From Planctomycetota bacterium (GTDB lineage: Bacteria > Planctomycetota > B15-G4 > JADJEK01), in NCBI GenBank assembly GCA_043802345.1, contig JAZDLC010000067.1, forward strand, positions 1 through 24,918: DNA of 24,918 nucleotides, written 5' to 3'. The translations under genes were made by a program, and so were the position numbers. The notes under the pieces were generated by a model that saw nothing but the letters and a program-made list of their open reading frames with translations, did not search any database and was not told the origin of the DNA. Below, in pieces: positions 6,054 through 24,918 of this stretch; the first letter of the stretch is position 1; each line of letters starts with the position of its first letter.

Positions 6054-7418
6054 GATCATGGACGGAGCCCCCAACTGCGCGGGCAGGCCGAACAGGGTGC
6101 TGCCGAAGTCGTACGGCTGCGCCAGGAGGATCCAACCACTCAGGGGATGGCCGAGCGGTCCGCCGATCACGGCCACTCCGTTGAAGTCCGCGGGAACCTG
6201 GGCCACGCCGTAGGTCGGGACCGCGTAGAACTGAGGGAACCAGCGGCCGTGGATCGTCGAGCCGATCGGCTGGTACCCGGGGATCGCCGGTTGCAGGCTG
6301 AAGAAGAGCGCGATCGACTGTCCGGGAGTGCAGTTCCCGATGTCGAATTCGACCCAGTTCTCGCTCGGGTAGTTCACTTCGCCATCCACCACGTCCGTGA
6401 CCAGGGCGCGGCCGGTCTCCGGCTGCACCGTCAGGGCTCCGATTCCTCCGCTCATCGAGCCGAGCCCGAAGTGTCCCAGATTCGGCACCGCGGCGCCCAG
6501 GGGCGGACCGGAACCGGTCGTGGCGAACTCGCCGTTGTTCTTCGTGGTCAGCACCACGGGACCCAGACTCTCGCCGGAGAAGTACAGGTTCGGATGGGGC
6601 TGTCCATCCAGTCCGATGAAGGTCTGCGCATTGGCGTCAATGGCCAGACAGGTGAGATCGCCGATCGTGGAGGAAGTGGTCAGCCCGGTGTTCGCCACCA
6701 TGGCATCCACGTCCGCCTCGTTCAGCAGCAGCACGGCGGAACCAGATGTGACGGTGAGCACTACACCGGAGCCGGCGAAGGTCATCGCCGCGGCCGGGAT
6801 CATCACCACTCCGCCGTCGCCCACCAGCGTGCCATTCACCATCTCGTCATCCGCGAAGGAGAGGTAGATGTTCCCGGCCACATCCTGGGTGAAGGCGTTG
6901 GTGTCGAGGGCGTCGACCCCGGAAGTCTGGCCCACCGCCGACAGGATCTGACTCTCCAGCAGCACGCTCTGTACGAAGTCGCCGCCGGACGCTCCGGGAA
7001 CAAACCGGAAGACCGAACCCTTGGAGACGCCGCCGAACGACTCGCTGGTCGAGAAGACGAACGAAAAGACGTTTCGGATCTCGAGGGGAGGCGCCGGAAC
7101 CTTCAGGATGTCGATGGCGTCGAAGCTGCCGATGAAGTTCTCCGCAAAGACCCCGTCCGCATCGTGATCCCCGAGGATCGTATCGATCGTGACGTTGGTC
7201 AGGATCTTCTCGCAAGAGAAGGTGAAGACCGGCTGGAAGCTCACGACATCAGTCGGTCCGAGGTTGGCCAGGACCGTCCCGCTCGAGCCGGAGGCCGTGG
7301 TGCCGCTGCCGTTCAGGACAAAGATGGCTGCGTCGGGGCCCGGGACAATCTGCGCCGAGGCGCTCAATCCGAGTACGGAGATCAGGAACAGGGTGCACGG
7401 GGTTCTGCGGATCATCAT
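6042..7418 (-). CDS. Hypothetical secreted Ser/Gly/Thr-rich protein with N-terminal signal peptide
   Basis: Good SD (GGAGAAGTGAGG) precedes the ATGATG at 7418/7415. The signal peptide is MMIRRTPCTLFLISVLGLSASA|Q. The track start at 7463 adds 15 residues with no SD. The antisense 528-aa ORF 5865..7451 is Arg/Gly/His-rich and an artefact. Confidence 0.6.
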   Translation of the reverse strand: MMIRRTPCTLFLISVLGLSASAQIVPGPDAAIFVLNGSGTTASGSSGTVLANLGPTDVVSFQPVFTFSCEKILTNVTIDTILGDHDADGVFAENFIGSFDAIDILKVPAPPLEIRNVFSFVFSTSESFGGVSKGSVFRFVPGASGGDFVQSVLLESQILSAVGQTSGVDALDTNAFTQDVAGNIYLSFADDEMVNGTLVGDGGVVMIPAAAMTFAGSGVVLTVTSGSAVLLLNEADVDAMVANTGLTTSSTIGDLTCLAIDANAQTFIGLDGQPHPNLYFSGESLGPVVLTTKNNGEFATTGSGPPLGAAVPNLGHFGLGSMSGGIGALTVQPETGRALVTDVVDGEVNYPSENWVEFDIGNCTPGQSIALFFSLQPAIPGYQPIGSTIHGRWFPQFYAVPTYGVAQVPADFNGVAVIGGPLGHPLSGWILLAQPYDFGSTLFGLPAQLGAPSMIHFP

Positions 7419-7635
7419 CCTCACTTCTCCAGGTGTCCAGAAAGTAGGTAGTGTGGTTCCCATTCGGAAGACGCCAACCGCCTGGCGAGCAACCTCCGCC
7501 GGACCGTCACGATCACTGGGGGCAATGTCGTCAGATTTGGACGAACTGCCACCTTGATTGGTTCAGATCCGAAAAAAAAACTATCAGTCCGACCAAATTC
7601 TGGATGTCTTTGCCTGGAATCGGCCCGTTCCCCGG

Positions 7636-8469
7636 CTATCCCAGCTGCCCGATCCTCTCCACCACGTCATGAATCAACTCGTCCGGAGTGGAAGCGCCCG
7701 CGGACACGCCGACCGACGAGGCGTCCTTGAACCAGTCAGGTTCCAGGTCGCCCGCCGTTCCGACCTGGTAGGTTCTGGGATTCAGACTCTTCCCGATGGC
7801 CGTCAGTCGCTTGGAGTTGGCGCTCGTGAAGGAGCCGACGACGATCACCACGTCATGCCGCTTGGCCAGCTCACGGATCTCCTCCTGATTCCTGCGGGTC
7901 GGAAAGCAGACCGTGTTGATGAAACGAAGGTCGGCCGCCTTGCGGGCCAGGACCGACAGCACGGCGATGATGTTCTCGATCATCTGGGTCGACTGGGACA
8001 CGACTCCGCAGCGCCGCATGTAGGGCAATTCCTCCGCCTCCTCCGGGCCGCTGACCACCAACGGGTTTTCCACCTGACTCGCGATCCCATCCACCTCCTC
8101 GTGGCCATGATCCCCGATGACCACCACCGTGCGCCCCTCTCTCTGCAGTTCCCTCACTTCCGAGTGGATCTTCGAGACCAGCTTGCAGGTGCCGTCCAGG
8201 ACATTCAGGCCGCTCTCCTCCGCGGCTTTCCAGACGTCCGTGGTGGTCCCGTGGGCGCGAAAAAGCAGGGGAGCATCCTTCGCTTCTTCCAGCGACGTAA
8301 CGACTCGAACTCCCGCTTCCGCGAGCTGCCCCACCACAACCTCGTTATGGACGATATCCCCCAGCATGTAGACCGTGCCATGCCTCTTCGCGCTCTCCTT
8401 GGCCAGCTTCACGGCGTCCCTGACGCCAAAGCAGTAGCCCGCGTGCTTCGCCAGTTCAATCCGCATCAT
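7636..8469 (-). CDS. ispH: 4-hydroxy-3-methylbut-2-enyl diphosphate reductase
   Basis: MMRIELAKHAGYCFGVRDAVKLA... matches the IspH/LytB N-terminus (E. coli MQILLANPRGFCAGVDRAI), including the conserved Cys ligands. The track ORF start at 8694 is an upstream in-frame extension (MLAVHPDAPFPQ...). The true start is ATGATG at 8469/8466. Confidence 0.9.
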   Translation of the reverse strand: MMRIELAKHAGYCFGVRDAVKLAKESAKRHGTVYMLGDIVHNEVVVGQLAEAGVRVVTSLEEAKDAPLLFRAHGTTTDVWKAAEESGLNVLDGTCKLVSKIHSEVRELQREGRTVVVIGDHGHEEVDGIASQVENPLVVSGPEEAEELPYMRRCGVVSQSTQMIENIIAVLSVLARKAADLRFINTVCFPTRRNQEEIRELAKRHDVVIVVGSFTSANSKRLTAIGKSLNPRTYQVGTAGDLEPDWFKDASSVGVSAGASTPDELIHDVVERIGQLG

Positions 8470-8535
8470 CCGATCGTTCCGGGGGTGAAAGGGGGATTGG
8501 CAGGGAGTCGACCGGGCATGGTATAGAATGCCTCC
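8470..8535. promoter_or_regulatory. Divergent promoter region between ispH (-) and the RluA-family gene (+)
   Basis: A 66-nt gap separates divergently oriented genes. Inferred from position only. Confidence 0.3.
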
Positions 8536-9543
8536 TTGGAGGATAGCTTGCGGCGAAAACAAAGCTGGGTCGTTCCGCCCGAACTGAAGAACCTGAGCCC
8601 GTACCGGTTTCTCTGCCGGTCGCTGGAGGAGGTCCGCCCCGGAATGCTGCGGCAGCTTCTGCGGGAAGGGGGCGTCCGGGTGGACGGCGAGCAAAAGGCC
8701 CTGAACCGGCCGCTGAAGGTGGGCGCCCTGGTCGACGTCGTCTGGCCGGACGAGCTGTACCAGCGGGCCTCGAGGAAGCAGGTCTGCGAGTCACTGGTGA
8801 TGCTTTATCAGGACGACCAGATCCTGGTGATCGACAAGCCGGCGGGCATCCCGGTGGTGCCGGACCGCCACCGGAACTCACCCACCGTCTTCGACCTGCT
8901 GCCGAAAGGCGTGGCGCGGCATCCGGATTCCGGCATGACACCGAAGCTGGCCCACCGGCTCGACAAGCACACCAGTGGCGCGCTGCTGATCGCCAGGGAC
9001 CGGGACGCCAAGCGTGACCTGACGCGGGCGTTTCAGGAACACCTGGTCCACAAGGAGTATCTGGCCCTGGTCCGGGGAGTCGTCCGGCAGGAGGATCAGA
9101 CGGTGGAGGCGGCGATCGGCAAGGACCGCAGGCATGCGGTCCGGATGGTGATCGACCAGGAGCATGGCAAGCCGGCCGTCACCAGGATCCGGGTGGAAGA
9201 GACCTTCGACGGCTTCACTCTCCTCAGAGTTTCGCCGATCACCGGCCGCACGCACCAGATTCGCGTCCACCTGGCGCACATCGGTTTTCCGATCCTGGGA
9301 GACGGCCTGTACGGCGGCCGGCCCCAGCTGTTTCTTTCCGATCTGAAGCGCTCCTTCCGGCCAAAGGCTGGCCGAGAACTGAAACCAGTGCTCGACCGCC
9401 AGGCGCTTCACTGCGAGATCCTCGAGTTCGACACGATGGACGGGGTCCGCCAGCGGGTCAGGTCCGAGCTTCCGTCTGATCTCCAGATCCTGCTCAAGCA
9501 CCTGCGCCGCTACCGACCGGCGAGAGAGCTTGAGAATCAATAG
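8536..9543 (+). CDS. RluA-family 23S rRNA pseudouridine synthase (RluD-like, S4 plus catalytic domain)
   Basis: The catalytic motif HRLDKHTSGALLIA is present, with an S4-like N-terminal region and a conserved C-terminal TGRTHQIRVHLA. The start is uncertain: TTG at 8536, or TTG at 8548 preceded by GGAGGA. Confidence 0.85.
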   Translation: MEDSLRRKQSWVVPPELKNLSPYRFLCRSLEEVRPGMLRQLLREGGVRVDGEQKALNRPLKVGALVDVVWPDELYQRASRKQVCESLVMLYQDDQILVIDKPAGIPVVPDRHRNSPTVFDLLPKGVARHPDSGMTPKLAHRLDKHTSGALLIARDRDAKRDLTRAFQEHLVHKEYLALVRGVVRQEDQTVEAAIGKDRRHAVRMVIDQEHGKPAVTRIRVEETFDGFTLLRVSPITGRTHQIRVHLAHIGFPILGDGLYGGRPQLFLSDLKRSFRPKAGRELKPVLDRQALHCEILEFDTMDGVRQRVRSELPSDLQILLKHLRRYRPARELENQ

Positions 9544-9633
9544 GCACCCCGGTAGACTGCCCGGCTTCCCAGCTTCGCGAGGGTCCTCGAAAGTCCCCCT
9601 CGATGGTCCCTAAGGTACTGGAAAAAAAACGAG

Positions 9634-9768
9634 ATGAAACTGAAACGCCGCAGCTCCAATTCAAAGCGGGCTCGCATGACCGGTTTTCGGTACCGCAGGA
9701 AGACCCAGGGCGGGCGAAGCGTCATTCGGCGCCGCAGGGCGCGGGGCCGCCGCCTCATGCCCAAGTGA
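9634..9768 (+). CDS. rpmH: 50S ribosomal protein L34
   Basis: The 44-aa product MKLKRRSSNSKRARMTGFRYRRKTQGGRSVIRRRRARGRRRLMPK matches the L34 consensus (M K.......KR.R.HGFR.RM.T..GR.V..RRR.KGRK.L) at identical spacing. It is absent from the ORF track because it is under 60 aa. Confidence 0.8.
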   Translation: MKLKRRSSNSKRARMTGFRYRRKTQGGRSVIRRRRARGRRLMPK

Positions 9769-9807
9769 TCCGTCAGGCCGTCACGAAGAGGCTTGACCCC
9801 TTCTCTC

Positions 9808-10407
9808 TCAACGGCCTGCCACCGCCGTCACATCCCCTGCGACCGCCCTGCCCAGCTCTCCCAGCAGCCCGCTCAGACAAGCCACCACGGCCGGGATCCC
9901 CTCCCCTGACGCTCTTCCGGTGAAACGGGAGCGGCGCCGCCGCAGCGCCTCATCTCCTTTCCCCGAAATCACCCACTCCGCGCTCAGCATGCAGTCGCCC
10001 TGCTCCGTGCCCTCGAACCTGATGATCTCCACTCCGATGCGGAGGTCGATCTCGCTCGGATGGCGATACGGCGCGCGCAGCACTCGCTTCGCTCCCGTCA
10101 GCACCAGGAGGTCGTCCGCAAGAACCCGCTCCAGATTCGACTGCAGCGGCTCGGCCCACTGATGGAAGACCTCCAGCCGAACCTGATTCCCCTCGAGCCG
10201 GGTCACCAGCTGCGGACGGTCCAGATAGCGCGGGATCACGACAGATCCCAGGCCGAGCGTCAGCCCATCGTCTCCTGGCGCCACGGCATCTCCGTCACCG
10301 GACGGAACCAGATGGTAGAGAGTTGTTTCCTGCTGCGGAGTGAAGCAGGCCAGCGGCGTGAGGGCCGCCGCCAGGAACAGAAGCCCCGCGACCGCAACTC
10401 GTCTCAC
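9808..10407 (-). CDS. pqiC: PqiC/YmbA-family lipoprotein (Pqi transport-system auxiliary component)
   Basis: A lipoprotein signal ends in the lipobox LTPLAC. It aligns along its length with E. coli YmbA: LYHLVP vs YYQLP, VVIPRYLDRPQLVTR vs VTVPDYLAGNGVVYQ, and EIIRFEG...SAEWVI vs TVTEFNG...SGEWLL. The GTG start overlaps the pqiB stop as GTGA. Confidence 0.8.
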   Translation of the reverse strand: MRRVAVAGLLFLAAALTPLACFTPQQETTLYHLVPSGDGDAVAPGDDGLTLGLGSVVIPRYLDRPQLVTRLEGNQVRLEVFHQWAEPLQSNLERVLADDLLVLTGAKRVLRAPYRHPSEIDLRIGVEIIRFEGTEQGDCMLSAEWVISGKGDEALRRRRSRFTGRASGEGIPAVVACLSGLLGELGRAVAGDVTAVAGR

Positions 10408-12098
10408 TTCGAACCTCCCGCCGGCTTCTTGCCGAAGATCAGTGCGTTCGGATCGCGCTCCAGGGTATCGGCCAATCCGCGGATCGAGCGCGTCGCCCCG
10501 TGAATTTCCGCCAGGACCCGGTCGATCTCGAACCGCAGCGGGGACTCATCCCCGACCGACTCGCGCATCTGCGTCAGGAAGGCCCTGGCATCCTCCAGGG
10601 TCGAGGACGCCCGGAGGGCAACCTGTTCCATGCTCCCGGCGAGAAGGTCGACCTTGCCGTCAATCCGCACGGCAAGGTCTCCGACCTTCACGAGAGTCTC
10701 GTTCAGGCTCTTCACGGAGGAGATCATGTCCGGGCTGGAAACCAGGTTGTCGAAGTCTGCCAGCGCCTTCTGCCCGGTTTCGGCCAACTCCTTGAGCGGC
10801 AGGGCCCTCAGCCTATCGAACGTGTCCATGGCGACGGCCTGGAACCGGTCCAATTGCGACTCGACCGTGGGGAAGGTCGGGTACGGAACGGTTGGCACAA
10901 TGCTCGCAGCCGGCGCGTCCCGATAGAAGTCGAGGTCGACGTACTGCTGGCCGGTGACGATGTAGCCGGACCTGAGCTGAGCACGCATTCCCTTCCCCAC
11001 CAGCGACTCGATGACCTCTTCGTCGGAGACGTCGCAGGGTTCGAACTCATGCAGCCGCTCCAGTTCCAGGTCGACCAGGACCGGAATCCGAATTTCGCCT
11101 CTCTGACGATCCAGCACGGCGCCCACATCCTTCACCTTGCCGATCTGCATCCCCTGGTACTCCACCGGCGCCCCGGCCTTCAGCCCCCGAGGACTGCTCT
11201 TGAAGGTCATCAGGTAGGTGATGCTGGAGGTGATCTTCGGCTGACCGACGTCAGCACGCTTCCCGTAGAGGTGGAACTGGTGGCCGCTCTTGCACCGGTC
11301 TCCCGGATTCCCATCATCGGTGTCGAAGGCGATGGCGCCGCCCAGGATGGCCGCCAGCGATTCTGCCTTCAGGCTCAGCCCATCTGAGCCCACTTTGACC
11401 TCCACTCCGCTGGCGTTCCAGAATCTTGAACTGGTGCGCACGAGGTCGGAGTAGCCGTCCTGGATGAACAGGTCGACCTTCACTCTCCGATTGTCCTCGA
11501 GAATCTCGTACGCCTCCACCTCGCCGACCTCGAAGTCGAGGTAGCGGACCGGCGAACCAACTCGCAATGAACCGAGCCGATCAGCGAGCAGCACCAGTCT
11601 CAGTCCCCGGTCCGCATGCGATGATGGCACCGGCCGGTCCAGCCCCTCGAACAACCGGGATGGAGCTCCCGGAGCCGGATCGATCGCCAGGTAGGTCCCC
11701 GAAAGGTACGTCTCCAGGTCAGAGATCCCCGCGGTGCCAAAGCGCGGCCGGGCAACCCAGAATTTCGTATTGGTCGTCAAGTGAGGCTCGAAGCTCCGGT
11801 CGATCTCCGCCTCCACCACGATCTCCCGCAGATCGTCCTGCAGCCGGACCGTCTTCACCAGGCCCACTTCCAGCGACCGGAACTTGACCCTGGTCTTGCC
11901 CGCCTCCAGCCCACGTGCGTCGGCGAAGGTGATCGAGACGGTGACGCCACGCGCGCTCACGCTCTGATAGAGGAGCCACAGGCCGATCCCCACCGCCACC
12001 AGCGGAACCAGCCACACGATGGAGATCCCACGCCTTGCCCGCACCACCACCTTCGGCAACTCCCCGGGGCTGGGGGGAGCTGGATTGGATGAGTTCAT
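10404..12098 (-). CDS. pqiB: PqiB-like multi-MCE-domain envelope-spanning protein
   Basis: The true start is ATG at 12098 (MNSSNPAPPSPGELPKVVVRARRGISIVWLVPLVAVGIGLWLL...), in an ATGA overlap with the upstream pqiA stop. There is an N-terminal TM segment followed by repeated MCE-like segments. Residues 1-176 of the track's 740-aa ORF are read-through in a non-coding frame. Confidence 0.85.
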   Translation of the reverse strand: MNSSNPAPPSPGELPKVVVRARRGISIVWLVPLVAVGIGLWLLYQSVSARGVTVSITFADARGLEAGKTRVKFRSLEVGLVKTVRLQDDLREIVVEAEIDRSFEPHLTTNTKFWVARPRFGTAGISDLETYLSGTYLAIDPAPGAPSRLFEGLDRPVPSSHADRGLRLVLLADRLGSLRVGSPVRYLDFEVGEVEAYEILEDNRRVKVDLFIQDGYSDLVRTSSRFWNASGVEVKVGSDGLSLKAESLAAILGGAIAFDTDDGNPGDRCKSGHQFHLYGKRADVGQPKITSSITYLMTFKSSPRGLKAGAPVEYQGMQIGKVKDVGAVLDRQRGEIRIPVLVDLELERLHEFEPCDVSDEEVIESLVGKGMRAQLRSGYIVTGQQYVDLDFYRDAPAASIVPTVPYPTFPTVESQLDRFQAVAMDTFDRLRALPLKELAETGQKALADFDNLVSSPDMISSVKSLNETLVKVGDLAVRIDGKVDLLAGSMEQVALRASSTLEDARAFLTQMRESVGDESPLRFEIDRVLAEIHGATRSIRGLADTLERDPNALIFGKKPAGGSK

Positions 12099-12724
12099 TC
12101 GTTCTTCTCCAGAGCGTCGAAGATGAGACGCGGATCGAAATTCCGGGTGGCGAGCATCGTCATCACCACCACCACACCGAAGGCGACGGCTCCCCCGTTG
12201 GGTGTGACCGAAGCGAGCGGGTCCACCTTGACCAGCGCGATCAGGATCGCGATGACGAAGATGTCCAGCATCGACCAGCGGCCGATCAACTCGAGGATCC
12301 GGTAGAGCCTGACCCGGTCCTTCGGCCTCCATTCCCAGCGGCCATGGACGGAGAGCAGCAGGAACAGCAGGCCCAGGATCTTCACACAGGGAACCACCAC
12401 GCTGGCAATCAACACCACCGCCGCCAGCACGTACTGTCCCCCTTCCATCAACTGGCGCACCCCCTCGAGGATCGTGCTCGAGTTGGCGCCGCGCAAGGTC
12501 TCCACCGTCATGACCGGATAGAGGTTCGCGGGAAGCAACAGCGCGACCGCCGCCAGGAGGAAGGCCCAGGTCCGCTGCATACTGCCCGGCTTGCGCGAGT
12601 GGAGCGTGGCATGACAACGGGGACACTGGCCGTGCCGTCCGAAACGCGCGGTCGGCTCGCGGCAGAGCCGGCCGCAGATCAGGCAGGTCAGGAGGCCGGA
12701 GCGGATCGCGCGGTTGCCGATCAT
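12095..12724 (-). CDS. pqiA: PqiA-family integral membrane protein, half-size (second copy)
   Basis: It starts at ATG 12724 (MIGNRAIRSGLLTCLICGRLC...HGQCPRCHA) with a CxxC...CxxC zinc ribbon followed by TM helices. ATGA overlaps occur at both ends. The track's 380-aa ORF carries a spurious upstream extension. Confidence 0.75.
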   Translation of the reverse strand: MIGNRAIRSGLLTCLICGRLCREPTARFGRHGQCPRCHATLHSRKPGSMQRTWAFLLAAVALLLPANLYPVMTVETLRGANSSTILEGVRQLMEGGQYVLAAVVLIASVVVPCVKILGLLFLLLSVHGRWEWRPKDRVRLYRILELIGRWSMLDIFVIAILIALVKVDPLASVTPNGGAVAFGVVVVMTMLATRNFDPRLIFDALEKNE

Positions 12725-13386
12725 CGCCCGGTCTCCAACCGTTCGAACAGCCGCTCGGAATCGAGCGACGCCGTGGCCCACGCGGTCAGGAGGACGAGCG
12801 CAAGGAGAGCCCAGAAGGCCGGTTCCAGCTTCAGCGCGGCCATTTCCCCCAGCTTCACCAGCGCCACCAGGCTGCCCAGCAGGTAGACCTCGAGCATGGC
12901 CCAGGGTCTGAGCCGCTCGCTCGCCTGAAGCACCCGCGCCTGCAGCGGCAGCCGCAGACCGAGTCGCAGTGGAAGCAGGACGTAGAGCAGGCCGAGGTAG
13001 ATTGAGAGCGGCGCAATGAAGATGACCAGCAGCAGCAATGCGCCCAGCATGAAGAACTGGGCGTCGAACAGCTCCAAGACCCCGGAGAGGATCGAGCCGG
13101 CCTGGCTCCGCCCCTCCATGGTGAAAGTCATGAAGGAACCGCAGTGGGCCATCACGAACAGCACCAGGCCCGCCAGGGTCAGCGCGAGGGTCTGGTCCAG
13201 GGCGTCCTTGCGGTGCTCGTAGAGAACCGCCCCACACCGGGAACAGCAGGCCCGTTGCCCGGAGCCAAGCGGCTCTCGCCGCAGCAGAAGATCACATTCG
13301 TGACAGGCGACCCAGCCACTCTGTTCAGCCCGGGAACCCAATCCAACCACCCCTGTAGAGAAGACCGGCGACGCATGTTCGTCCAC
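12721..13386 (-). CDS. pqiA: PqiA-family integral membrane protein, half-size (first copy)
   Basis: It has a CHECD...CCSRCG zinc ribbon plus hydrophobic helices. The GTG start at 13386 is uncertain and may be an internal GTG. Its stop overlaps the next pqiA start as ATGA. Confidence 0.7.
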   Translation of the reverse strand: MDEHASPVFSTGVVGLGSRAEQSGWVACHECDLLLRREPLGSGQRACCSRCGAVLYEHRKDALDQTLALTLAGLVLFVMAHCGSFMTFTMEGRSQAGSILSGVLELFDAQFFMLGALLLLVIFIAPLSIYLGLLYVLLPLRLGLRLPLQARVLQASERLRPWAMLEVYLLGSLVALVKLGEMAALKLEPAFWALLALVLLTAWATASLDSERLFERLETGR

Positions 13387-13469: not shown

Positions 13470-14681
13470 CTACGCTTGGTTCGGAAGGTCGACCCCTTGC
13501 CGGAAGAGCCGCCGGACATGCTGCTCGCGCTCCTTCTCGATCGCGCGCAGCCTCGAGACGAGTTTCCAGGCTTGCTCCCAGATCTGCTCCCGCTCGTCGG
13601 CCCCGTCCGGAATAAGCTCCTCCTCGATGCAGGCCAGGCCCCGTTCAAGGCGGGTCAACTGGCTCCGAAGCGCCTGCTGCAGCCGTTCCGACGCGGGAAT
13701 GATCTCCTCTCTGATCCAGCGCGCCCGCGCGCGCGCCGACGACGGAGGAGACCTCCTCTTCAAGGCCAGCCAGCGAGCATCCAGCGTCGCCAGGCGCAGG
13801 CCTCCTCGCCGGACCAGATTCTCGCCGCGCAACCGGCCCGGACGGCATGCCGCTCCTGGAGTGGCCGCCAGAGGCGGCGGCCTGAGAACCGCCCGCGCCT
13901 CTTCCGCTTCAGGGGTCTTCGCGGCCGCCGCCTTCCGGCCAGTCCCGGGGCATAGCATCCGGGCGAGCAGTTCGCAGCAACCGCAAGCCGGACGCGCCCC
14001 ACAGATCGGCTTGCTGCCGGCAATAAACTCGGCCACCCCGACCCGCGCATGGAGGAGTTCGCGGCCGGTGGCGGAATCCTCGGGGCAACCGACTCGACCG
14101 AGAAACCGGACCACCTCTCCCCTGGCCACGAACCCCCTGGGCCGGAAGGCCCTGCGGAATTCACCGAGCGCGCCTGCTTCAAGGAACGGAGGCGCGTCCT
14201 GAGGGAGTCTGCTGAAGAACGCCTCCAGCTTTCCCGCCTCATGGGCAGCCCGCAGCGCGGAGGCGAACGGCAACCCGACGGCCCGCTTGTACGACAGGAT
14301 CCTCCGGGCGTGGTCGCGCAGACGGATGAGCCGATCGACCAGGCCGGGCTGGGAACGCCGGCGGCGGGTCAACCGCCTGGCCGTCTCCCGAATCTCGGGC
14401 ATGCTGGCGGTGGCCAGAAGCTCGGGATGGAAGCCGAACATCTCGGCGGCGATCGGCGAGTTGGAGAGCAGGGCCCCGGAGAGGGCCGCGAGCGCTTCCC
14501 GATCATCCCGAGGCAGGCCGTCCTCGCTGAGCCGGTCAACCTTGAGCCTCCAGCGAGGCCGTTGATGATCCAGGCAGGCAGCCACCGCCTCCAGCACTGC
14601 CGCCGCTCTCGGATCGTCCGACTGCGAAGCTCCGTCCATCACGCCCCCGGCCGATCTGCGCCTCAGCCGGCCGAACACCAT
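13470..14681 (-). CDS. Hypothetical protein with Cys cluster (C-x5-C-x-C-C-x8-C), unknown function
   Basis: The 403-aa ORF has protein-like composition with Leu/Glu/Arg-rich helices. It contains GCPED...ICGARPACGCCELLARMLCPG. It lies between the helicase and the pqi operon on the same strand. The antisense ORFs are Arg/Pro/Ser low-complexity. Confidence 0.5.
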   Translation of the reverse strand: MVFGRLRRRSAGGVMDGASQSDDPRAAAVLEAVAACLDHQRPRWRLKVDRLSEDGLPRDDREALAALSGALLSNSPIAAEMFGFHPELLATASMPEIRETARRLTRRRRSQPGLVDRLIRLRDHARRILSYKRAVGLPFASALRAAHEAGKLEAFFSRLPQDAPPFLEAGALGEFRRAFRPRGFVARGEVVRFLGRVGCPEDSATGRELLHARVGVAEFIAGSKPICGARPACGCCELLARMLCPGTGRKAAAAKTPEAEEARAVLRPPPLAATPGAACRPGRLRGENLVRRGGLRLATLDARWLALKRRSPPSSARARARWIREEIIPASERLQQALRSQLTRLERGLACIEEELIPDGADEREQIWEQAWKLVSRLRAIEKEREQHVRRLFRQGVDLPNQA

Positions 14682-14936
14682 TCTCCCGCGCGTCCTGGTT
14701 TAGTGGAAATCGGGCTCTTGCGCCATGTTTTCTCCACGGCTTGCCCTCCCCACAATCCCGCGGCATTCATGATCTGAAACATGCCGGGAAACGTGCGGCT
14801 GACTGCAAGGAACCAACCAGGCCGCGATCAGGGCGCGCAGGACGCCGCGGATCAGCGGATGCCGTGAGTTCTGAAGGACGCGACGATCGGCCACGGGGGC
14901 CTGACCAGGTGCCGCACGTCTTCTTCTGACGGCCGT

Positions 14937-17768
14937 CTAGGACTCGGACCTCCCGAGAAGGTCATCGGTAAAGGACGCGAGGAGAGACTCCGGATTTTCC
15001 ACCCCCGGCACCAGGAACTCCGCCATGCGCCGGAAGAACGCCTGGTAGATCACCGCTTCCGGCCCGATCTCGCACTCCGCGGGAAGCGACCGCAGGACTC
15101 GCGCGCTGTAGCGTGGACTGGTCGCCACTCGCGGATCGAGCAGCAGCACGGCTCCTCGATCCTGTTCGCTCCGCACGACCCTTCCCGAGCCCTGCAGCAA
15201 GCGCACCATGGCCCGCGGCAGGGAGTACTCCAGGAATCCGTCCCGGCCCTCGCTCCGCAGTTGCTCCGCGCGGGCCAGATGGATCGGATCGGTCGGTGGC
15301 TCGAACGGGATTCTCTCCAGGATGGTGCAAAGCAGACCGGAGCCGCGCACATCCACTCCCTCGAAGAAAGCCCGCGCCCCGAGCAGCACGCAGCGGCCTT
15401 CCTGGCGAAAGCTCTCCAGCACTCGCGCCGCGCTGCCGTCAGGACCGGGACACAGGAGACGGACGGAACGTGCGGCCAGTCTTGCCTTCAGCAGATCCGC
15501 GACTCGCAACATGCGCGCCTTCGAGTTGAACAGCACCAGCGTGCGCCCGTTCAGCGCGCAGGCCACGACGAAGACCGACCTGGCCACGGCGCGGGCGGCG
15601 ATGCGCGGATCGCGCGCGAGCACGTTGCCGCCGCCCAGCGGCACGTAGAACCGGAGCGAGCGCTGGTAGTCGAACGGAGAGCCGAAAGCCAGCGGCTCGA
15701 TCCGCCGCTCCGGGTCGAGCCGGAAGAAGCCGGTCTGCGTCCCGAAGAACTCGAAGTTGTCCGCCACCCGCAGAGTGGCGGAAGTCAACACCGCAGAGAA
15801 GCAGGGCTCCAGCAGGCGAAGATGCAGCTCCTTCCCGACGTCCACGAAGGCCGCCCGCAGCGACCAGTGCGCCGGCCGCTTCGAGCCGGCCGGCCGCCAC
15901 TCGACCCATGTCACGAGACCGTCCGCGCCGTCGAGAATCTCATCCAGGACGGCGACGATCTCGTCAACGCGGTCAGCAATCCCGCTCAGCTCGCCGCGAA
16001 GTTCTCCCTGCGGAGGAAGGCCCGCCGCCAGCTTCGCCACTCCCGCGGCCAGTTCCCGGCACCTCGACCCGAACCGGGCAAAGAGGTTCCTGAGCGTGTC
16101 GAACTCCGGGTCTTCCCGAACCTGGCGGCCCAGCGCCAGCACCTGCCGGTCCTCTCCGTCGGCGGGCGCGGGGGCCGGGCACGCGCGCAGCAACCGTTCC
16201 ACGGCAAGGGTCAGGCCCGGCAGGGACTGAAGCAGCAGTTCGGCGCTCTCTTCCAGAATCCCCTCCAGCCGTTCCGAAACAGTCTCCCGGAACACTCCCT
16301 CTTCCATCTCCAGCGCGTCCGCGCGGCGCATCACGGCGCGGACGGAAGTGGCGGAATCGTCGCGATCGAGACGCGACAGGACGCCGCGAATCCCCGCCAG
16401 GGAGAGTTCCCTGCCGAATGCGTCGGTCGCGGTGTCGACCAGGTCGTGAGCCTCGTCGACGATCACGATCTCCGGTCGCTTGTGGGCCCGCGGCCAGTTG
16501 AGGAGCAAGGCGTGATTGGCGATCAGCAGGTGGGCTCCTCGCGCGCGCCGCCAGACCCTGGCGAAGAAGCAGCGCCCTCCATGGGAGCAGCTCCTCGCCG
16601 TCGGGGCATGCTCGCAGCGCAGCCTCTCGAGGAACCTGCGGGCGGGAGGAAGGCGGGACACGATCCAGGCCGAGATCTGCTCCAGATCGCCGTCCCCGCT
16701 CCGCTCGGCGAAGCGCCGGAAGAATGCCAGGGCCAGGAACTCCCGGGAATCGCCTCGCTCCTGGACGCTCCTGCTCAGACTCTCGAGACGGCGCAGGCAG
16801 AGGTAGTCTCCGCGCCCCTTGACCAGCGCGGCCCGGAACGAGAGTCCGAGGGCCTCCTTGAGGAGTGGCAGTTCCCGGCCGAAGAGCTGCGCCTGGAGAT
16901 TCTTGGTCTTCGTCGCGACCAGGGCGGGCAGCCCGTTTCTCACCGCGTAGAGCAGGACCGGCACCAGATACCCCAGCGACTTGCCGACGCCGGTGCCCAC
17001 CTCCGCCATGAGCGACCTGCCTTCATTCAGCGCGCTGGCCACTGACCGGGCCAGGGAGAGCTGCGCTTCCCTGCGCGCGTATCCCGGCACGGCGCGAGCG
17101 ATCGGACCATCCGGTGAGAACAGGTCGAGCAGCTCCTGGTCGAGCACCGGTTGCCGGAACGGTCTTTCATCGCCCCTTTCCTCGCCCAGCAGCGGATCCT
17201 CCGGCACCGCCTGCCGGGGTGTTGCGAGCGGCAGGTCCTCGAGCAGTCCGGCCAGCGGGCTTTCCGCCCGCCCAAGGTCGTACTTCAGCGCGAGCACCCC
17301 CTCCGGGTCGCGCTCCGCCGACAGGTCGGACCGCAGCGCCTCCACGAGGCCAAGCAGCGCCCGCGCCGTCGGGGCGGAACCTGTCTGGTCCGGACGGCCT
17401 TCCGGAGCGAGATCGAAGCGGCGGCGGAGCGCGGATGCCGAGTGATCGAACCACTCCGGGTGCACCAGATGGGAGAAGAGACGGATTTCCGCGGCGCCCG
17501 CCAGGGAAGGGAGCAGGCTGCGTTCCGCGCCCGGGGCGGACAGGAGCGGTTCGAGCCACTCGAGATCGAACACCAGCACGGGCCGGCCACGCACGAACCC
17601 CTCCAGCGCGAGCAGCCCTTCCATCGGATTGACCGCCTCAAGCGTGGTTTCAAACAGCTCGCCGCCCGCTCGGCCTCGGGTGCCACCGAGACAGGCACCA
17701 ATCCGCAGCCGCCATGAGCCCGGACCATCAGAGGCGCCTTCTCCCGGCGCCACTACCGCGAAGGCCAT
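14937..17768 (-). CDS. DinG/XPD-family ATP-dependent DNA helicase with about 225-aa N-terminal extension
   Basis: Walker A is GTGVGKSLGYLVP and the DEAH box is VIVDEAHDL. Four Cys (YLCLRRL, LRCEH, RSCSH, GRCFF) sit between Walker A and B, as in DinG/XPD 4Fe-4S helicases. The N-terminal extension keeps an FDLE motif that may be a degenerate DnaQ-like Exo I. The start overlaps the GT2 stop as TGATG. Confidence 0.85.
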   Translation of the reverse strand: MAFAVVAPGEGASDGPGSWRLRIGACLGGTRGRAGGELFETTLEAVNPMEGLLALEGFVRGRPVLVFDLEWLEPLLSAPGAERSLLPSLAGAAEIRLFSHLVHPEWFDHSASALRRRFDLAPEGRPDQTGSAPTARALLGLVEALRSDLSAERDPEGVLALKYDLGRAESPLAGLLEDLPLATPRQAVPEDPLLGEERGDERPFRQPVLDQELLDLFSPDGPIARAVPGYARREAQLSLARSVASALNEGRSLMAEVGTGVGKSLGYLVPVLLYAVRNGLPALVATKTKNLQAQLFGRELPLLKEALGLSFRAALVKGRGDYLCLRRLESLSRSVQERGDSREFLALAFFRRFAERSGDGDLEQISAWIVSRLPPARRFLERLRCEHAPTARSCSHGGRCFFARVWRRARGAHLLIANHALLLNWPRAHKRPEIVIVDEAHDLVDTATDAFGRELSLAGIRGVLSRLDRDDSATSVRAVMRRADALEMEEGVFRETVSERLEGILEESAELLLQSLPGLTLAVERLLRACPAPAPADGEDRQVLALGRQVREDPEFDTLRNLFARFGSRCRELAAGVAKLAAGLPPQGELRGELSGIADRVDEIVAVLDEILDGADGLVTWVEWRPAGSKRPAHWSLRAAFVDVGKELHLRLLEPCFSAVLTSATLRVADNFEFFGTQTGFFRLDPERRIEPLAFGSPFDYQRSLRFYVPLGGGNVLARDPRIAARAVARSVFVVACALNGRTLVLFNSKARMLRVADLLKARLAARSVRLLCPGPDGSAARVLESFRQEGRCVLLGARAFFEGVDVRGSGLLCTILERIPFEPPTDPIHLARAEQLRSEGRDGFLEYSLPRAMVRLLQGSGRVVRSEQDRGAVLLLDPRVATSPRYSARVLRSLPAECEIGPEAVIYQAFFRRMAEFLVPGVENPESLLASFTDDLLGRSES

Positions 17769-18526
17769 CAGTCCTTCTGCCCCGCCTTCGGTCGGCGCTC
17801 CCAGAGCTTGGCGTACTTCATGAAGACGTAGACCGCGCCCATCCAGGCCACGATGAAACCTCGCACCCCATCCAGGAAGCCGGCCTTCAGGAGGTACATC
17901 TTCAGGAACCGCAGCGGTGGCCGTGTGACCAGTCGGAAGAGGGAGCAGCGCTCGCCCGCCGCCACTCTCCGCTCCGCGATGATCGAGGTGTAGGAGTCGA
18001 TCTTCCGCAGGTGATGCGAGAGGTCCCGGTAGTTGTAGTGGGTCAGCTCTCCTGAGAGCCGCTCGACCGTTCCCTCCACACGGACGTGATCATGAGGGTC
18101 GGTTCCGGTCCAGCACCCCTGCCGGCGGTCGAACAGCCGCAGCCGCCACTCCGGCCACCAGCCACCATGGTCGATGTACCGGCCCAGATAGAAGGTGTGC
18201 CGGGCAACTTCGTATCCGGCGGCCCGGGGAGCCGCCAGCACGCGGGCGATCTCCAGAGCCAGCTGGGAGGACGCGCGCTCGTCCGCGTCGATGCAGAAGA
18301 CCCAGTCATGGGATGCCCGATCCACGGCCAGTTGTTTCTGTTGCACATGCCCCAGGAACTCCTGCTCGATCACCCTGGCCCCCGCCTTCCTCGCCAGTTC
18401 GACGGTCCTGTCAGTGGAGAGGGAATCGACGACGAGGATCTCGTCCGCGAACCCCAGCGTTTCGATGCACTCCGTGATGTGAGCCGCCTCGTTCCTCGCG
18501 ATGATGCATGCGCTGACCCGATTCAT
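17768..18526 (-). CDS. Family 2 glycosyltransferase (WaaE/KdtX-like, LPS-core type)
   Basis: The true start is ATG 18526 (MNRVSACIIARNEAAHITECIETLGFADEILVVDSLSTDRT...CIDADE). It is 252 aa and forms an ATGA overlap with the glcF stop. The first 240 residues of the track's 492-aa ORF are an Arg/Gly-rich read-through artefact. Confidence 0.8.
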   Translation of the reverse strand: MNRVSACIIARNEAAHITECIETLGFADEILVVDSLSTDRTVELARKAGARVIEQEFLGHVQQKQLAVDRASHDWVFCIDADERASSQLALEIARVLAAPRAAGYEVARHTFYLGRYIDHGGWWPEWRLRLFDRRQGCWTGTDPHDHVRVEGTVERLSGELTHYNYRDLSHHLRKIDSYTSIIAERRVAAGERCSLFRLVTRPPLRFLKMYLLKAGFLDGVRGFIVAWMGAVYVFMKYAKLWERRPKAGQKD

Positions 18527-19848
18527 CGCGGCCCCGTCGCGCGATCGAGCAGTTCCACGGGATGCAGGACTTCCACGTCCAGCCCGGCCCGCTGAATGCC
18601 GGCGCGCCACTGGAGGTTGCAGCCGGGATTGGCCGTGGCCAGGACCTTCGCGCCGCTCCTCTTCAGGTCGGCGATCCTCTGCTCGAGCAGCATGCCTGCT
18701 TCGCGAGGATGGAGGACGTTGAAGAGTCCGCCTGCTCCGCAGCAACGGTCGGGGCGATCCAGCGCGACCAGTCGCACCCCGGGAATCGCTGCCAGCATCT
18801 CCCTGGGCGCCGCGCGCACTCCCTGGGCGTGAGCCAGATGGCAGGCGTCCGCGTACGCCACGGTGAGCTCGCGGACCGATCCCGGCGGCCGAATGCCCTG
18901 CTCGACCAGAAACTCGGTCACGTCCTTGACCTTGCTGCCGAAATTGACGGCGCCCTGCACCTCTCCCTCGCTGATGCCGGACCCCTCTTCCAGCAGGCGT
19001 CCGTACTCCTTCATGGCGGCGCCGCACCCGGCCGAGTTGACCAGCACCGCGTCCACCGGGCCAAGTTCCGTGAAGGCGGAGATCGTCTTCCTGGCCAGGG
19101 AGCGGGCCCGGTCGAGAGCACCGAAGTGGGCCTGGAGGGCGCCGCAGCAGGTGCGTTTCCTTGGGATGACAACTTCGAAACCTTGATTCGCCAGAACCCG
19201 GACGGTGGCGCGGTTGATCCCGCCCAGCAGGAGCGGCGCCACACATCCTTCCAGCAGCGCGACCCGCCCCCTTCTGGTGCTCACCGCCTGCGTGACCGCC
19301 GGGAGGCGCCGTCGTTCCCTCCCTCCCGGAATCTCCGGCATCAGCGCGTCTCTCTGGTGGAGATCCTCCGAGACGTATTTCAGCACTCCGTACCGCCGCA
19401 GGATCCGGCGCAGCCCGGAGCGCTGGTAGAACGAAACCAGACGGGCCAGGGTGGAGAGCAGGAGCGGCCTGTGCACCACCTCCGAAAGCAGCAGCCGCCG
19501 GATCTTGCTTCCCATCGTGCTGGGCCGCGCTGGCTCCAGCACCTCCGACCGCACGAACTCCATCATCTCGCCGAAGCGCACGCCGGAGGGACAGACCGGC
19601 TCGCAGGCCCGGCAGACCAGGCAGAGGTCCAGGTCGCGAATCGCGCTCTGAGTCGGCTGTACCTCTCCCTCCGCGAGGCCGCGCATGAGGTAGACCCGTC
19701 CCCTCGGCCCGGCAGACTCCCTCGAGAGCAGCTCGTACGTCGGGCAGGCCGGCAAGCAGAGACCACAGTGCACGCAGTCCAGCGTCCTCTGGTACTGAAT
19801 CAGATCGGAAGCGGTCCGGATCGGCTTGCCCATCTCGGGAGCGCTCAT
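18523..19848 (-). CDS. glcF: Glycolate oxidase iron-sulfur subunit (GlcF-like, 2x[4Fe-4S] plus CCG domains)
   Basis: CVHCGLCLPACP and CLVCRACEPVCP ferredoxin motifs are followed by CCG-domain cysteines (CCGA, CHLAHA, CCGAGG). Its start overlaps the glcE stop. Confidence 0.8.
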   Translation of the reverse strand: MSAPEMGKPIRTASDLIQYQRTLDCVHCGLCLPACPTYELLSRESAGPRGRVYLMRGLAEGEVQPTQSAIRDLDLCLVCRACEPVCPSGVRFGEMMEFVRSEVLEPARPSTMGSKIRRLLLSEVVHRPLLLSTLARLVSFYQRSGLRRILRRYGVLKYVSEDLHQRDALMPEIPGGRERRRLPAVTQAVSTRRGRVALLEGCVAPLLLGGINRATVRVLANQGFEVVIPRKRTCCGALQAHFGALDRARSLARKTISAFTELGPVDAVLVNSAGCGAAMKEYGRLLEEGSGISEGEVQGAVNFGSKVKDVTEFLVEQGIRPPGSVRELTVAYADACHLAHAQGVRAAPREMLAAIPGVRLVALDRPDRCCGAGGLFNVLHPREAGMLLEQRIADLKRSGAKVLATANPGCNLQWRAGIQRAGLDVEVLHPVELLDRATGPR

Positions 19849-21191
19849 TCAGCCCCTCCGAAGAAGAGCCGCCCGGGGCTGAGCAGGTCGTCTGGATCGA
19901 GGGCCCGCTTTACCTCGCGGGCCGGCCCCTCCGCCTTGACATGACCGAAGAAGACATCCAGGTGACGCCGCCACTCGGGTGGAGCCGATTCCAGCTGCAG
20001 CCGGCGCGGACCGTTCACGCCCGCGAACCGGGTCAGCTCGCGCAGGAGCGTCTCCTCGGGAGGACGCGAGAAGCCCAGCCGCACCAGCCCCTGCAGCGGC
20101 TCCACAGAAACCACGGTCTCCTGGCCCGCTCCCGCGGCGAGGGCCACCAGCGACTCGATCGTTCCTCCCAAAACCGAACAGTCGCCCTGAAACGGCAGCA
20201 TCGCCAGCTGAATCACCGCGCCCTGGCGCTTCTCGTCGCACCCCGGGAGCAACTCCCGAATCCCGGTCCAGGCCAGCGACGCCTCATTCTGTTCCAGCTG
20301 GAGATCGAAGGTCCGTTCACACGATTCGAGCAGTCCCAGGCACTGCTTCAACGAAACCGCCACGCTCCTCTCGGTGCCATGGAAGCGGAGCGCCGCGACA
20401 AACTGCCCATCCGGATCTCCAGGCGCGAGCGGAACCTTCTGCCGGACCAGCGAGGCAGCATCGGCCAGGTGGAAGGAAACGGCGCTGGCGCCCGACCGGC
20501 GGAACAGAACCAGGAAGCGGTCGAACGGTTCCAGGTCGTCGAACCCCACCAGCAGGGTGGCATCTTTCTCCGGCAGGGGCCTGAGTCGGAGGTTGACCTC
20601 GCACAGCACGGCCAGGGCTCCCAGGCTTCCGTGGTACAGGCGGTGCAGATCGAACCCGGTGACGTTCTTGACCAGCCTCCCCCCGGACCGGCTCAGCCGC
20701 CCGTCCGGGTGGGCCGCGAGGGTTCCCAGCAGGAAGTCCTTCGCCCTGCCGTAGCCGACTCTCAGCGGCCCGGTCACTCCCGCGGCCACCACGCCGCCGA
20801 TGGTCGCCCGAGAGGTTCCGGCCGGGTCGAGCGGCAGCAACTGTCCCTGGTCGCGGACCGTCCCGATCAGATCCCTGAGCGGCGTTCCGGCCCGGGCCAC
20901 GAGCGTCTGATCGGCCACGTCATGCGCCACCACACCCTGCATCCTGGTCGTGATCAGCACCAGATCCACGGGCCGCGGCACATTGCCGAGGCGCTGGTGC
21001 TGGCCGCCGCCCCAGGGAATCACCTTCAGCCGCCGCTCGCGGGCCTGCCGCAGCAAGGCCGCGCACTGCTGTTCGTCCGCCGGCGCCACCGCGACCGCGG
21101 ATGACACTCCTAGCTCCCGGGCGATCTCGCCGTCCGCTCCCACCTCCCAGGCGGACTCAGCGCCGAGCAGTCGTTGAAAGAGCTCGATCAC
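19845..21191 (-). CDS. glcE: Glycolate oxidase FAD-binding subunit (GlcE-like)
   Basis: It has an FAD_binding_4-like N-terminal region (VIPWGGGQHQRLGN...) and sits between glcD and glcF with ATGA overlaps. The start may be internal to the called ORF. Confidence 0.7.
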   Translation of the reverse strand: MIELFQRLLGAESAWEVGADGEIARELGVSSAVAVAPADEQQCAALLRQARERRLKVIPWGGGQHQRLGNVPRPVDLVLITTRMQGVVAHDVADQTLVARAGTPLRDLIGTVRDQGQLLPLDPAGTSRATIGGVVAAGVTGPLRVGYGRAKDFLLGTLAAHPDGRLSRSGGRLVKNVTGFDLHRLYHGSLGALAVLCEVNLRLRPLPEKDATLLVGFDDLEPFDRFLVLFRRSGASAVSFHLADAASLVRQKVPLAPGDPDGQFVAALRFHGTERSVAVSLKQCLGLLESCERTFDLQLEQNEASLAWTGIRELLPGCDEKRQGAVIQLAMLPFQGDCSVLGGTIESLVALAAGAGQETVVSVEPLQGLVRLGFSRPPEETLLRELTRFAGVNGPRRLQLESAPPEWRRHLDVFFGHVKAEGPAREVKRALDPDDLLSPGRLFFGGAE

Positions 21192-22621
21192 GACGGCAAT
21201 GTCTCCCCCTCCGGCGCGGACCCGACCTCGCCCCTGGCGCAGCCGTGGCTCTCGGGCAGGACCTTGTTCGGGTTCAGCAGCGAATCGCGATTGAACGCGT
21301 CCCGCACCGCCCGCATCTTGTCGAGATCATCCTCGCTGAAGACGAGGCGCATGTAGTCCCGCTTCTCCACACCGATGCCATGTTCGCCGGACAGCGAGCC
21401 GCCCGCATCAATGCACACCTTCAGGATCTTGCCGCCCGCCTCGATCACCCGGCCAGTCTCTTCCAGATCGCGGCGGTCGTACGACACGTTGGGATGCAGA
21501 TTGCCGTCCCCCGCGTGGAGGATGTTCGTGAGGCGGATTCCGGCCTCCCGGCCGATCTCGATCACCTTTGCGAGCACCTCCGGCAGCCTGGACCTCGGCA
21601 CCACCGCGTCCTGGACGTAGAGATCTGGCGCCAGTCTCCCCATGGCGCCGAAGGCTCCCTTGCGCCCCTTCCAGAGCCGCAGGCGGTGCGCCTGGTCCCG
21701 GGCCCGCTCGATGGAGAGCGCGTCCAGCTGCCGGCACAACTCCTCGGTCCGGTCGGTCGCCTCGAGCACCTGTTCCTTCTGGCCGTCGAACTCGAGCAGC
21801 AGCACCGCGCCCGCCTCCTGCGGATAGCCGGCGGCAAAGACAGAAGCCTCCACCGCCTCGATGGTCAGCCGGTCGAGGATCTCCATCGTGGCCGGTTCGA
21901 GCCCGCTCGCGATGGTCCGGCAGACCGCCTCGCACGCCCGCGCCACGTCGGGGAAGGCAACGAGAAGGGTCTCCACTTTCTCGGGCAGCGGCGTGAGCAG
22001 CAAGGTCGCTTCCGTGACCACCGCACAGGTCCCTTCCGAGCCGACCAGAAGGCTGACCAGATCGAGCCCTGGCTCATCCGCGAGCGGCGACCCGAGTTCG
22101 ACGATCTCTCCATCCGGGAGCACGGCCTTGAGCGCCAGCACATGCCGTACGGTGGCGCCATACTTGAAGCAGTGCGGCCCACCCGCGTTCTCGGCCACGT
22201 TGCCGCCGATGGTGCAGACAATCTGGGAGGATGGATCGGGAGCAAAATGCAGCCCGGAACTCAAGGCCGCCACGGAGACCGCCGCGTTGCTCACGCCGCA
22301 CTCGACCCGCGCGAATCGATTGAAGGCGTCCACCTCGAGCACCCGGTTCATCCGGGCCGTCTCGATCGTCACGCCGCCGTGCGGGCAGAGCGCCCCGCCC
22401 GAGAGCCCGGTGCCCGCGCCTCTGGCCACGAACGGTATCCGCTCCCGCACCAGCACCTTGACGAGGCGGCTCACCTCATCCGTGGTGCGCGGCAGGACCA
22501 CCGCGGCCGGGCGGCTCCTCGCGTGGGTCAGGCCATCGCACTCGTAGACGAACGTCTCCTCCCTGGTGTGAAGGACATGCTCGGCGCCCACGATCTGCGC
22601 GAATTCAGAAAGAGGAATCAT
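21188..22621 (-). CDS. glcD: Glycolate oxidase subunit GlcD-like (FAD-linked oxidase)
   Basis: The true start is ATG 22621 (MIPLSEFAQIVGAEHVLHTREETFVYECDGLT...ARGAGTGLSGGAL...). It is 478 aa. The first 285 residues of the track's 762-aa ORF are an Arg/Gly/Pro-rich read-through artefact. Confidence 0.85.
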   Translation of the reverse strand: MIPLSEFAQIVGAEHVLHTREETFVYECDGLTHARSRPAAVVLPRTTDEVSRLVKVLVRERIPFVARGAGTGLSGGALCPHGGVTIETARMNRVLEVDAFNRFARVECGVSNAAVSVAALSSGLHFAPDPSSQIVCTIGGNVAENAGGPHCFKYGATVRHVLALKAVLPDGEIVELGSPLADEPGLDLVSLLVGSEGTCAVVTEATLLLTPLPEKVETLLVAFPDVARACEAVCRTIASGLEPATMEILDRLTIEAVEASVFAAGYPQEAGAVLLLEFDGQKEQVLEATDRTEELCRQLDALSIERARDQAHRLRLWKGRKGAFGAMGRLAPDLYVQDAVVPRSRLPEVLAKVIEIGREAGIRLTNILHAGDGNLHPNVSYDRRDLEETGRVIEAGGKILKVCIDAGGSLSGEHGIGVEKRDYMRLVFSEDDLDKMRAVRDAFNRDSLLNPNKVLPESHGCARGEVGSAPEGETLPS

Positions 22622-22644
22622 GCCTTGCGGGAAGCTCCAAGCTG

Positions 22645-24918
<2,274 letters not shown>

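Follow-up and report, generated by a model that had tools for sequence, protein, structure and literature searches.

The question raised by this locus is whether genes that are chained on one strand by overlapping stop and start codons are held together by a common function or only by a common history. The locus lies on a contig of a Planctomycetota metagenome-assembled genome (MAG), the whole of which was analyzed (24,918 bp, hereafter the window). On its minus strand, in 5' to 3' order, Pfam and NCBIfam models recognize acnA, glcD, glcE, glcF, a family-2 glycosyltransferase gene (GT2) and a gene for a DNA helicase. The initial annotation regarded the GlcDEF-type oxidoreductase, the glycosyltransferase and the helicase as physically coupled, and the functional grouping as unusual. 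We consider, with a probability of roughly three in four, that these genes make up a compact array on one strand, probably transcribed together and made of separable modules, which owe their proximity to common descent rather than to function. The chain on one strand stands as annotated, while the genes do not behave as a functional unit. The host would be an uncultured planctomycete of the Phycisphaerae type and the array a set of housekeeping genes, within which four modules can be proposed: acnA, coding for an aconitase of the tricarboxylic acid cycle; the glcD-glcE-glcF trio, which is the only part found to stay together in other lineages; a small soluble family-2 glycosyltransferase, which in more distant Phycisphaerales is found without the array genes between thiF and rpmH-rluD; and an iron-sulfur (Fe-S) helicase of the DinG type with a predicted and presumably dead DnaQ-like N-terminal domain.

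Junctions and expression signals

The most upstream gene, acnA (aconitate hydratase A, 22645..24918, on the minus strand like the whole array), has its 5' end cut by the contig end, with 757 amino acids (aa) present. Its stop codon TAG (22647-22645) is followed by exactly 23 nt (22622..22644, minus strand) before the glcD ATG at 22621, a spacer that contains GGAG and AAGG and that, read directly from the sequence, agrees with the gap annotated initially. Then follow glcD (21188..22621, minus strand, 477 aa, NCBI MFH0944038), glcE (19845..21191, minus strand, 448 aa, GTG start, MFH0944037), glcF (18523..19848, minus strand, 441 aa, MFH0944036), GT2 (17768..18526, minus strand, 252 aa, NCBI's call P0001) and the helicase gene (14937..17768, minus strand, 943 aa). 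The re-called starts and the lengths of these last five genes are identical to the NCBI calls (MFH0944036-38, P0001 and P0121), which includes the 943 aa given earlier for the helicase; the range of 17768-24918 that had been assigned to the array does not include this gene and has to be extended to 14937. The GC content is even across 17768-24918 (about 0.67-0.69).

All junctions from glcD to GT2 had been described as ATGA overlaps, which is correct for glcE/glcF (19848-19845) and glcF/GT2 (18526-18523), but the glcD/glcE junction is GTGA (21191-21188), with the Shine-Dalgarno sequence AGGGGGAG located 9 nt upstream. At the GT2/helicase junction the annotated TGATG was read at 17770-17766, the helicase ATG having one base in common with the GT2 stop. 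Shine-Dalgarno-like sequences (AGGGGGAG, GGAGGGG and GAAGGA) lie ahead of the array gene starts, inside the upstream genes, and a gap of 255 nt separates the helicase from the next gene, which codes for a hypothetical protein of 403 aa.

Terminators between the genes had been named as a possible objection to the chain, and none was found at any junction: the terminator scan returned nine weak sites, all within genes and not clearly above the 4.6 (standard deviation 2.3) obtained in shuffles, and as read from the sequence it gives no evidence of internal termination. A weak terminator-like hairpin at 19869-19886 (minus strand), inside the 3' end of glcE and about 20 nt ahead of the glcF start, has a T-poor tail and is probably non-functional. 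The sequence features by which operons are recognized are all present, i.e., genes on a single strand, overlapping stops and starts, Shine-Dalgarno-like sequences in the upstream genes and junctions free of terminators; the array probably represents one or two operons, and translational coupling within it is plausible.

Between 18562 and 23685, four long open reading frames (ORFs) on the plus strand (460, 387, 530, and 333 aa) lie opposite glcF-acnA, with mutual overlaps of 4 to 10 bp. This chain was ruled out as the coding strand, as none of its ORFs had a Pfam match while all minus-strand ORFs in the same region did; the plus-strand ORFs look like shadow ORFs of DNA with 68% GC, of a kind that could mislead strand assignment. 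Scans of the whole window for Rfam families and tRNAs gave no hits.

Gene order within and outside the clade

Loci of relatives are designated by L-numbers and originate from assemblies in ENA, JGI, Logan, and NCBI; percentages in brackets are the identities of their GT2 to that of the window. The order acn-glcDEF-...-GT2 is kept in about ten assemblies of one narrow clade, and in nine of them the helicase follows GT2. The possibility that the order is unique to this strain, raised initially, can be dismissed, as the same order recurs in independent assemblies from all four sources. L092 (81%) and L001/L002 (82%) have the order of the window with every junction overlapping. In L009 (74%) the slot between glcF and GT2 is occupied by 3.4 kb of ORFs (6640-9950) without Pfam match, and in L090 (72%), L003 (70%), L093 (68%), and L089 and L091 (both 64%) the order is acn-glcDEF-M61 peptidase-GT2-helicase. 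L005 (62%) has acn-glcDEF-M61-GT2 followed by rpmH on the other strand and no helicase; L011 is likewise helicase-less, with GT2 abutting rpmH. The M61 gene is found between glcF and GT2 in six assemblies (L003, L005, L089, L090, L091, and L093), and a direct contact of glcF with GT2 only in the closest relatives (GT2 identity of at least 81%). When present, the helicase directly follows GT2 in every context examined (nine assemblies, full-length helicases), with an overlap of 4 bp in eight relatives and of 1 nt in the window. The acn/glcD junction ranges among relatives from a 4-bp overlap to +114 nt.

The junctions around M61 offer a simple account of the differences between these loci. In L089 and L091 the M61 start forms a GTGA overlap with glcF, while the M61 end and the GT2 start are no more than a few bases apart, and an NTGA overlap joins M61 to GT2 in four of the six M61-bearing assemblies. 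The common order of the clade is acn-glcDEF-M61 peptidase-GT2-helicase, from which the window genome and its nearest relatives would most likely have lost M61 cleanly between two NTGA overlaps, bringing glcF directly against GT2. Given these boundaries of M61, its clean excision would recreate an NTGA junction. Judging from the sequences compared, the direct glcF/GT2 overlap is probably recent and would most simply have arisen from the loss of M61. That a gene was apparently removed between two NTGA overlaps, with an overlap re-formed between the remaining genes, is a point for specialists.

Across the nine assemblies, 38 of 48 junctions within the array overlap (79%), compared with 17 of 59 (29%) for the other co-directional neighbours at the same loci, tallies that come from related assemblies and whose counts are not independent. 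Because of this difference we consider the array as packed more tightly than its surroundings and operon-like. Elsewhere in the window, overlaps are common too, occurring at 1030-1033, 1602-1605, 5291, 10404-10407, 12095-12098, and 12721-12724. Furthermore, NTGA overlaps are formed between any genes that have come to be neighbours, for instance M61/GT2, acn/glcD (L003), or glcF/M61 (L089 and L091). Together with TGATG, they are the junctions commonly met in the densely packed operons of this lineage; such overlaps may couple translation, yet they need not imply a shared pathway. Gaps, where present, fall at acnA/glcD and at glcF/M61, positions that suggest acnA, glcDEF and M61-GT2-helicase as units.

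Outside the clade the array dissolves. A GT2 profile scan of species-level genomes covered 570 relatives across several phyla, and the best 80 loci were examined. Both acn and glcDEF were present at three of these, all with a GT2 identity of at least 62%, and the helicase at one of the three; the remaining 77 had neither acn nor glcDEF nor the helicase within 10 kb. GT2 genes at ≤ 57% identity came without the array genes, often still between thiF and rpmH-rluD. For instance, in distant genomes (L007, L016, L018, and L022) thiF was located upstream and rpmH-rluD downstream of a GT2 that had none of the array genes beside it. The flanks of the array (thiF on one side, rpmH-rluD-lytB on the other) are inherited too. 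A clustering of stop-to-stop ORFs around GT2 in the 80 loci, run for recurrent partners, was dropped, as shadow ORFs of high-GC DNA, rich in Arg and Ala, dominated the outcome.

A GlcF-profile scan of metagenomes provided 79 loci outside the clade (GlcF identity ≤ 59%). The glcD-glcE-glcF trio was kept in 36 of the 38 outgroup loci with enough upstream sequence, while acnA was upstream of glcDEF at none of 27 loci and GT2, M61 or the helicase downstream of it at none of 37. As only this trio recurs outside the clade, glcDEF alone is regarded as a conserved functional unit. The unusual functional grouping proposed initially is not supported by these comparisons: GT2 and glcDEF are never neighbours outside the clade, their contact is interrupted within it, and L005 lacks the helicase. 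The relatives split the array into a stable glcDEF trio and interchangeable neighbours.

At ten of the outgroup loci (L106, L111, L123, L127, L142, L147, L151, L155, L168, and L169) a gene for an RluD-like pseudouridine synthase (31-40% identity) follows glcDEF on the same strand, with an offset of about +6.2 to +6.9 kb relative to the start of glcF. This constant position hints at a different conserved glcDEF neighbourhood there.

Gene products and flanking genes

The acnA product matched the NCBIfam aconitase_1/AcnA models with 1176-1207 bits, above their cut-offs, as well as Pfam Aconitase and Aconitase_C. The products of glcD, glcE, and glcF resemble an oxidase/dehydrogenase subunit for 2-hydroxyacids linked to flavin adenine dinucleotide (FAD), an FAD-binding subunit, and an Fe-S subunit, respectively. 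GlcD matched FAD_binding_4 (3.1e-38) and FAD-oxidase_C (1.5e-61), with 9qgz ('Glycolate oxidase', 1.8e-73) and LctD (7qh2) as its closest solved chains, among which are a glycolate oxidase and lactate dehydrogenases. GlcE matched FAD_binding_4 (4.1e-25) and had GlcE as its best NCBIfam match, and GlcF contains a Fer4 dicluster (Fer4_8 and related models) and two CCG stretches, with invariant cysteines C25/C28/C31/C35 and C76/C79/C82/C86 forming two CxxCxxCxxxC motifs. All three missed their NCBIfam equivalog cut-offs (GlcD 477 of 897 bits, GlcE 139 of 284, GlcF 248 of 333), and the names given to them by NCBI are generic only. At the family level the predicted product is a three-subunit FAD/Fe-S 2-hydroxyacid dehydrogenase of the glycolate or D-lactate type. 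Since the scores are below the cut-offs and enzymes of both kinds, a glycolate oxidase as well as lactate dehydrogenases, are among the solved relatives, the substrate would be specified only as some 2-hydroxyacid. GlcE exceeds the NCBIfam GlcE model by about 100 aa, its C-terminal third (residues about 314-448) being unaligned to the model; the length is common to the relatives in the clade (448-459 aa). A literature search for glcDEF with Planctomycetes retrieved nothing about this cluster.

The GT2 product, apparently soluble, matched Glycos_transf_2 (PF00535, 1.3e-14), and its motif D80-A81-D82-E83 was invariant across 28 homologues. The closest solved chain was the glycosyltransferase domain of GmaR (E value 7e-23, residues 6-183), a protein glycosyltransferase, followed by the peptide S-glycosyltransferases SunS and ThuS, and the best NCBIfam match was TIGR04283 with 48.6 bits against a cut-off of 182. 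The window contains no genes for lipopolysaccharide (LPS) or sugar-nucleotide synthesis, and no LPS genes were found in the contexts seen in relatives. For the label 'LPS-core type' used in the initial annotation the sequence offers no support, the libraries compared containing no WaaE or LgtF reference.

The helicase is DinG/YoaA-like by its Pfam and NCBIfam matches. Pfam places DEAD and Helicase_C_2 (PF13307, 1.2e-34) in it, Walker A (AGTGVGKS) lies at residues 257-264 and DEAH at 438-441, and the closest solved chains are the DinG proteins of S. aureus (8zef) and E. coli (6fwr). The NCBIfam equivalog cut-offs were missed for YoaA (403 of 680) as well as for DinG (370 of 789 and 277 of 598). 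Between motifs I and II lie the cysteines C324, C394, and C400, which are invariant, and C385, present in 10 of 11 sequences. These four expected cysteines could hold a 4Fe-4S cluster in the position known from DinG/XPD, and their retention is consistent with the Fe-S label of the initial annotation. We take S. aureus DinG to be without the four Fe-S cysteines, and in this respect the helicase of the window is like E. coli DinG.

Upstream of the helicase core, residues 1-222 (17103..17768, minus strand) had no Pfam match, including none to RNase_T (PF00929). Their AlphaFold2 model (pLDDT 81, pTM 0.72) had as top Foldseek matches in the PDB a DnaQ domain (8h18, E value 4.8e-3), ERI3, Pop2, and S. 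aureus DinG (TMq 0.53); the fold scores are modest, with a best E value of 4.8e-3 and TM-scores of 0.4-0.5. An hhalign profile alignment to the RNase_T ends that DnaQ-DinG fusions carry placed the motifs in the expected register, with only P = 0.06. The domain is poorly conserved, its first strand has no conserved DxE, and D68 and D108 are its only invariant acidic residues. By its predicted fold (RNase H type) it looks like a degenerate DnaQ-like exonuclease domain, and it is probably not an active exonuclease, because the conserved DxE of the first strand is missing. The full length with this odd N-terminus is common to only 12 protein clusters, while more distant relatives of the helicase have an RNase_T or RadC domain there instead. 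A clade-specific DinG variant carrying a probable DnaQ-like domain that lacks the catalytic motif is a small point for specialists; neither this nor the apparent removal of M61 opens a long-standing question, and the degenerate domain and the strict linkage of the helicase to GT2 are only mildly novel points.

A role in defence was rejected: PADLOC returned only generic DinG homology to the Csf4 models of type IV CRISPR (clustered regularly interspaced short palindromic repeats) systems, GT2 and the hypothetical protein were unmatched, and no cas/CRISPR or other defence genes lie nearby. This hypothetical protein (403 aa, 13470..14681, minus strand, NCBI MFH0944033), encoded after the helicase, contains a Cys-rich stretch (CGARPACGCC) and has no match in Pfam or PADLOC. 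In L001, L003, and L091 the helicase is followed by a relative of this hypothetical protein (30-53% identity), which is a frequent and not a constant neighbour.

Further downstream on the minus strand lies a Pqi/Mla-type cluster for envelope lipid transport (9808-13386), with PqiA split in two genes (12721-13386 and 12095-12724), followed by an MlaD-domain protein and an ABC_trans_aux lipoprotein. Its genes are also chained, each stop overlapping the next start by 4 bp, with ATGA twice and a GTG start at the third junction. The genes rluD, rpmH, and lytB (8536-9768 on the plus strand and 7636-8694 on the minus strand) form a stable anchor, as they adjoin GT2 or are located a few genes away both within the clade and among more distant Phycisphaerales. 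Taken at their longest, the rluD and lytB ORFs run into each other head to head over about 160 bp, and the true starts probably lie further in.

Alternative readings and comparison with known systems

Several points weigh against reading the array as modules brought together by descent. Selection for co-expression is possible, given the excess of overlapping junctions (79% vs. 29%) and an array that stays intact at helicase identities of 42-44%, and so is a link between GT2 and the helicase, the latter standing directly after the former in all nine assemblies. In addition, loss rather than gain of M61 would be the more parsimonious direction when GT2 identity stands in for phylogeny, and a sigma-70 promoter scan of 14000-24918 that returned 0 sites (0.5 expected) says little for Planctomycetota.

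As the adjacency of GT2 and helicase is constant in the helicase clade, the most serious rival is that M61, GT2, and the helicase constitute a true functional module, for example a protein-modifying or DNA-linked one, to which glcDEF is a mere upstream neighbour and of which the window has the M61-less form. The M61/GT2 and GT2/helicase junctions measure -11 to +4 nt in every genome with both genes, helicases with the degenerate N-terminus were encountered in no position other than right behind GT2, gaps of 25-82 nt lie preferentially at glcF/M61 (suggesting a unit boundary), and the closest solved relatives of GT2 glycosylate proteins or peptides. We nevertheless consider such a module as unlikely: GT2 orthologues occur without M61 or helicase at 77 of the 80 species-level loci, the window, L001, and L092 can dispense with M61 and L005 with the helicase, and the defence library and the neighbouring genes pointed to generic DinG homology only. 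That GT2 and the helicase, preceded by M61 in most members, represent an undescribed functional unit, in which for instance glycosylation controls the activity or the partners of the helicase, is rather improbable; if it were true, the window would contain this unit in reduced form, fused to glcDEF.

Of the six or seven products, three (aconitase, GlcF, and the DinG-like helicase) have Fe-S clusters or cysteine motifs and are encoded in a tightly packed array, which could mean that they are kept together for co-regulation with iron or oxidative status. This appears quite improbable, as no regulator gene or recognizable regulatory RNA was found, GT2 and M61 have no link to Fe-S, and glcDEF never adjoins acnA or a DinG homologue outside the clade; Fe-S proteins are moreover common, and three in a row may occur by chance. 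A pathway shared by GlcDEF and GT2, leading for example from a 2-hydroxyacid-derived product into envelope glycan synthesis, would agree with the ATGA overlap that joins glcF to GT2 in the window, L001/L002, and L092. However, the contact is limited to these closest relatives, seven other assemblies have it interrupted, no linkage of the two is seen outside the clade, and the window is devoid of sugar-nucleotide or LPS genes, so that we regard it as very improbable. Finally, the window is a single 24.9-kb MAG contig and might as such be an assembly chimera or a chance juxtaposition unique to the strain, a reading that is refuted by the even GC content and the same order in independent ENA, JGI, Logan, and NCBI assemblies and whose probability is negligible.

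The preferred reading thus remains that of separable modules, together by descent and probably co-transcribed, and it carries a caution: in a compact GC-rich genome, runs of overlapping stops and starts are good evidence for co-expression and poor evidence for shared function.

Single parts of the array resemble well-known systems. As in E. coli, the GlcDEF genes are adjacent in D-E-F order and their products have matching domain sets, but the glcG, glcB, and glcA partners of the E. coli glcDEFGBA cluster are replaced by acnA, GT2, and the helicase as neighbours, the scores are far under the NCBIfam equivalog cut-offs, and GlcE is longer than its model. The GT2 of the window shares with GmaR, SunS, and ThuS the same GT-A family-2 domain, while with just 252 aa it is without the extra domains of GmaR and SunS. 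With the DnaQ-DinG helicases (S. aureus DinG 8zef; TIGR01407 dinG_rel) the helicase has in common a predicted, probable RNase H/DnaQ-like fold, an XPD/DinG core, and Helicase_C_2, and it differs from them by an N-terminus without RNase_T match or first-strand DxE. For the array as a whole, the comparison is with rpsU-dnaG-rpoD of E. coli, a mixed-function operon: the array of the window is limited to one narrow planctomycete clade, but in both cases genes of unrelated processes are packed together and apparently co-expressed, and parts of their order are conserved within a lineage.

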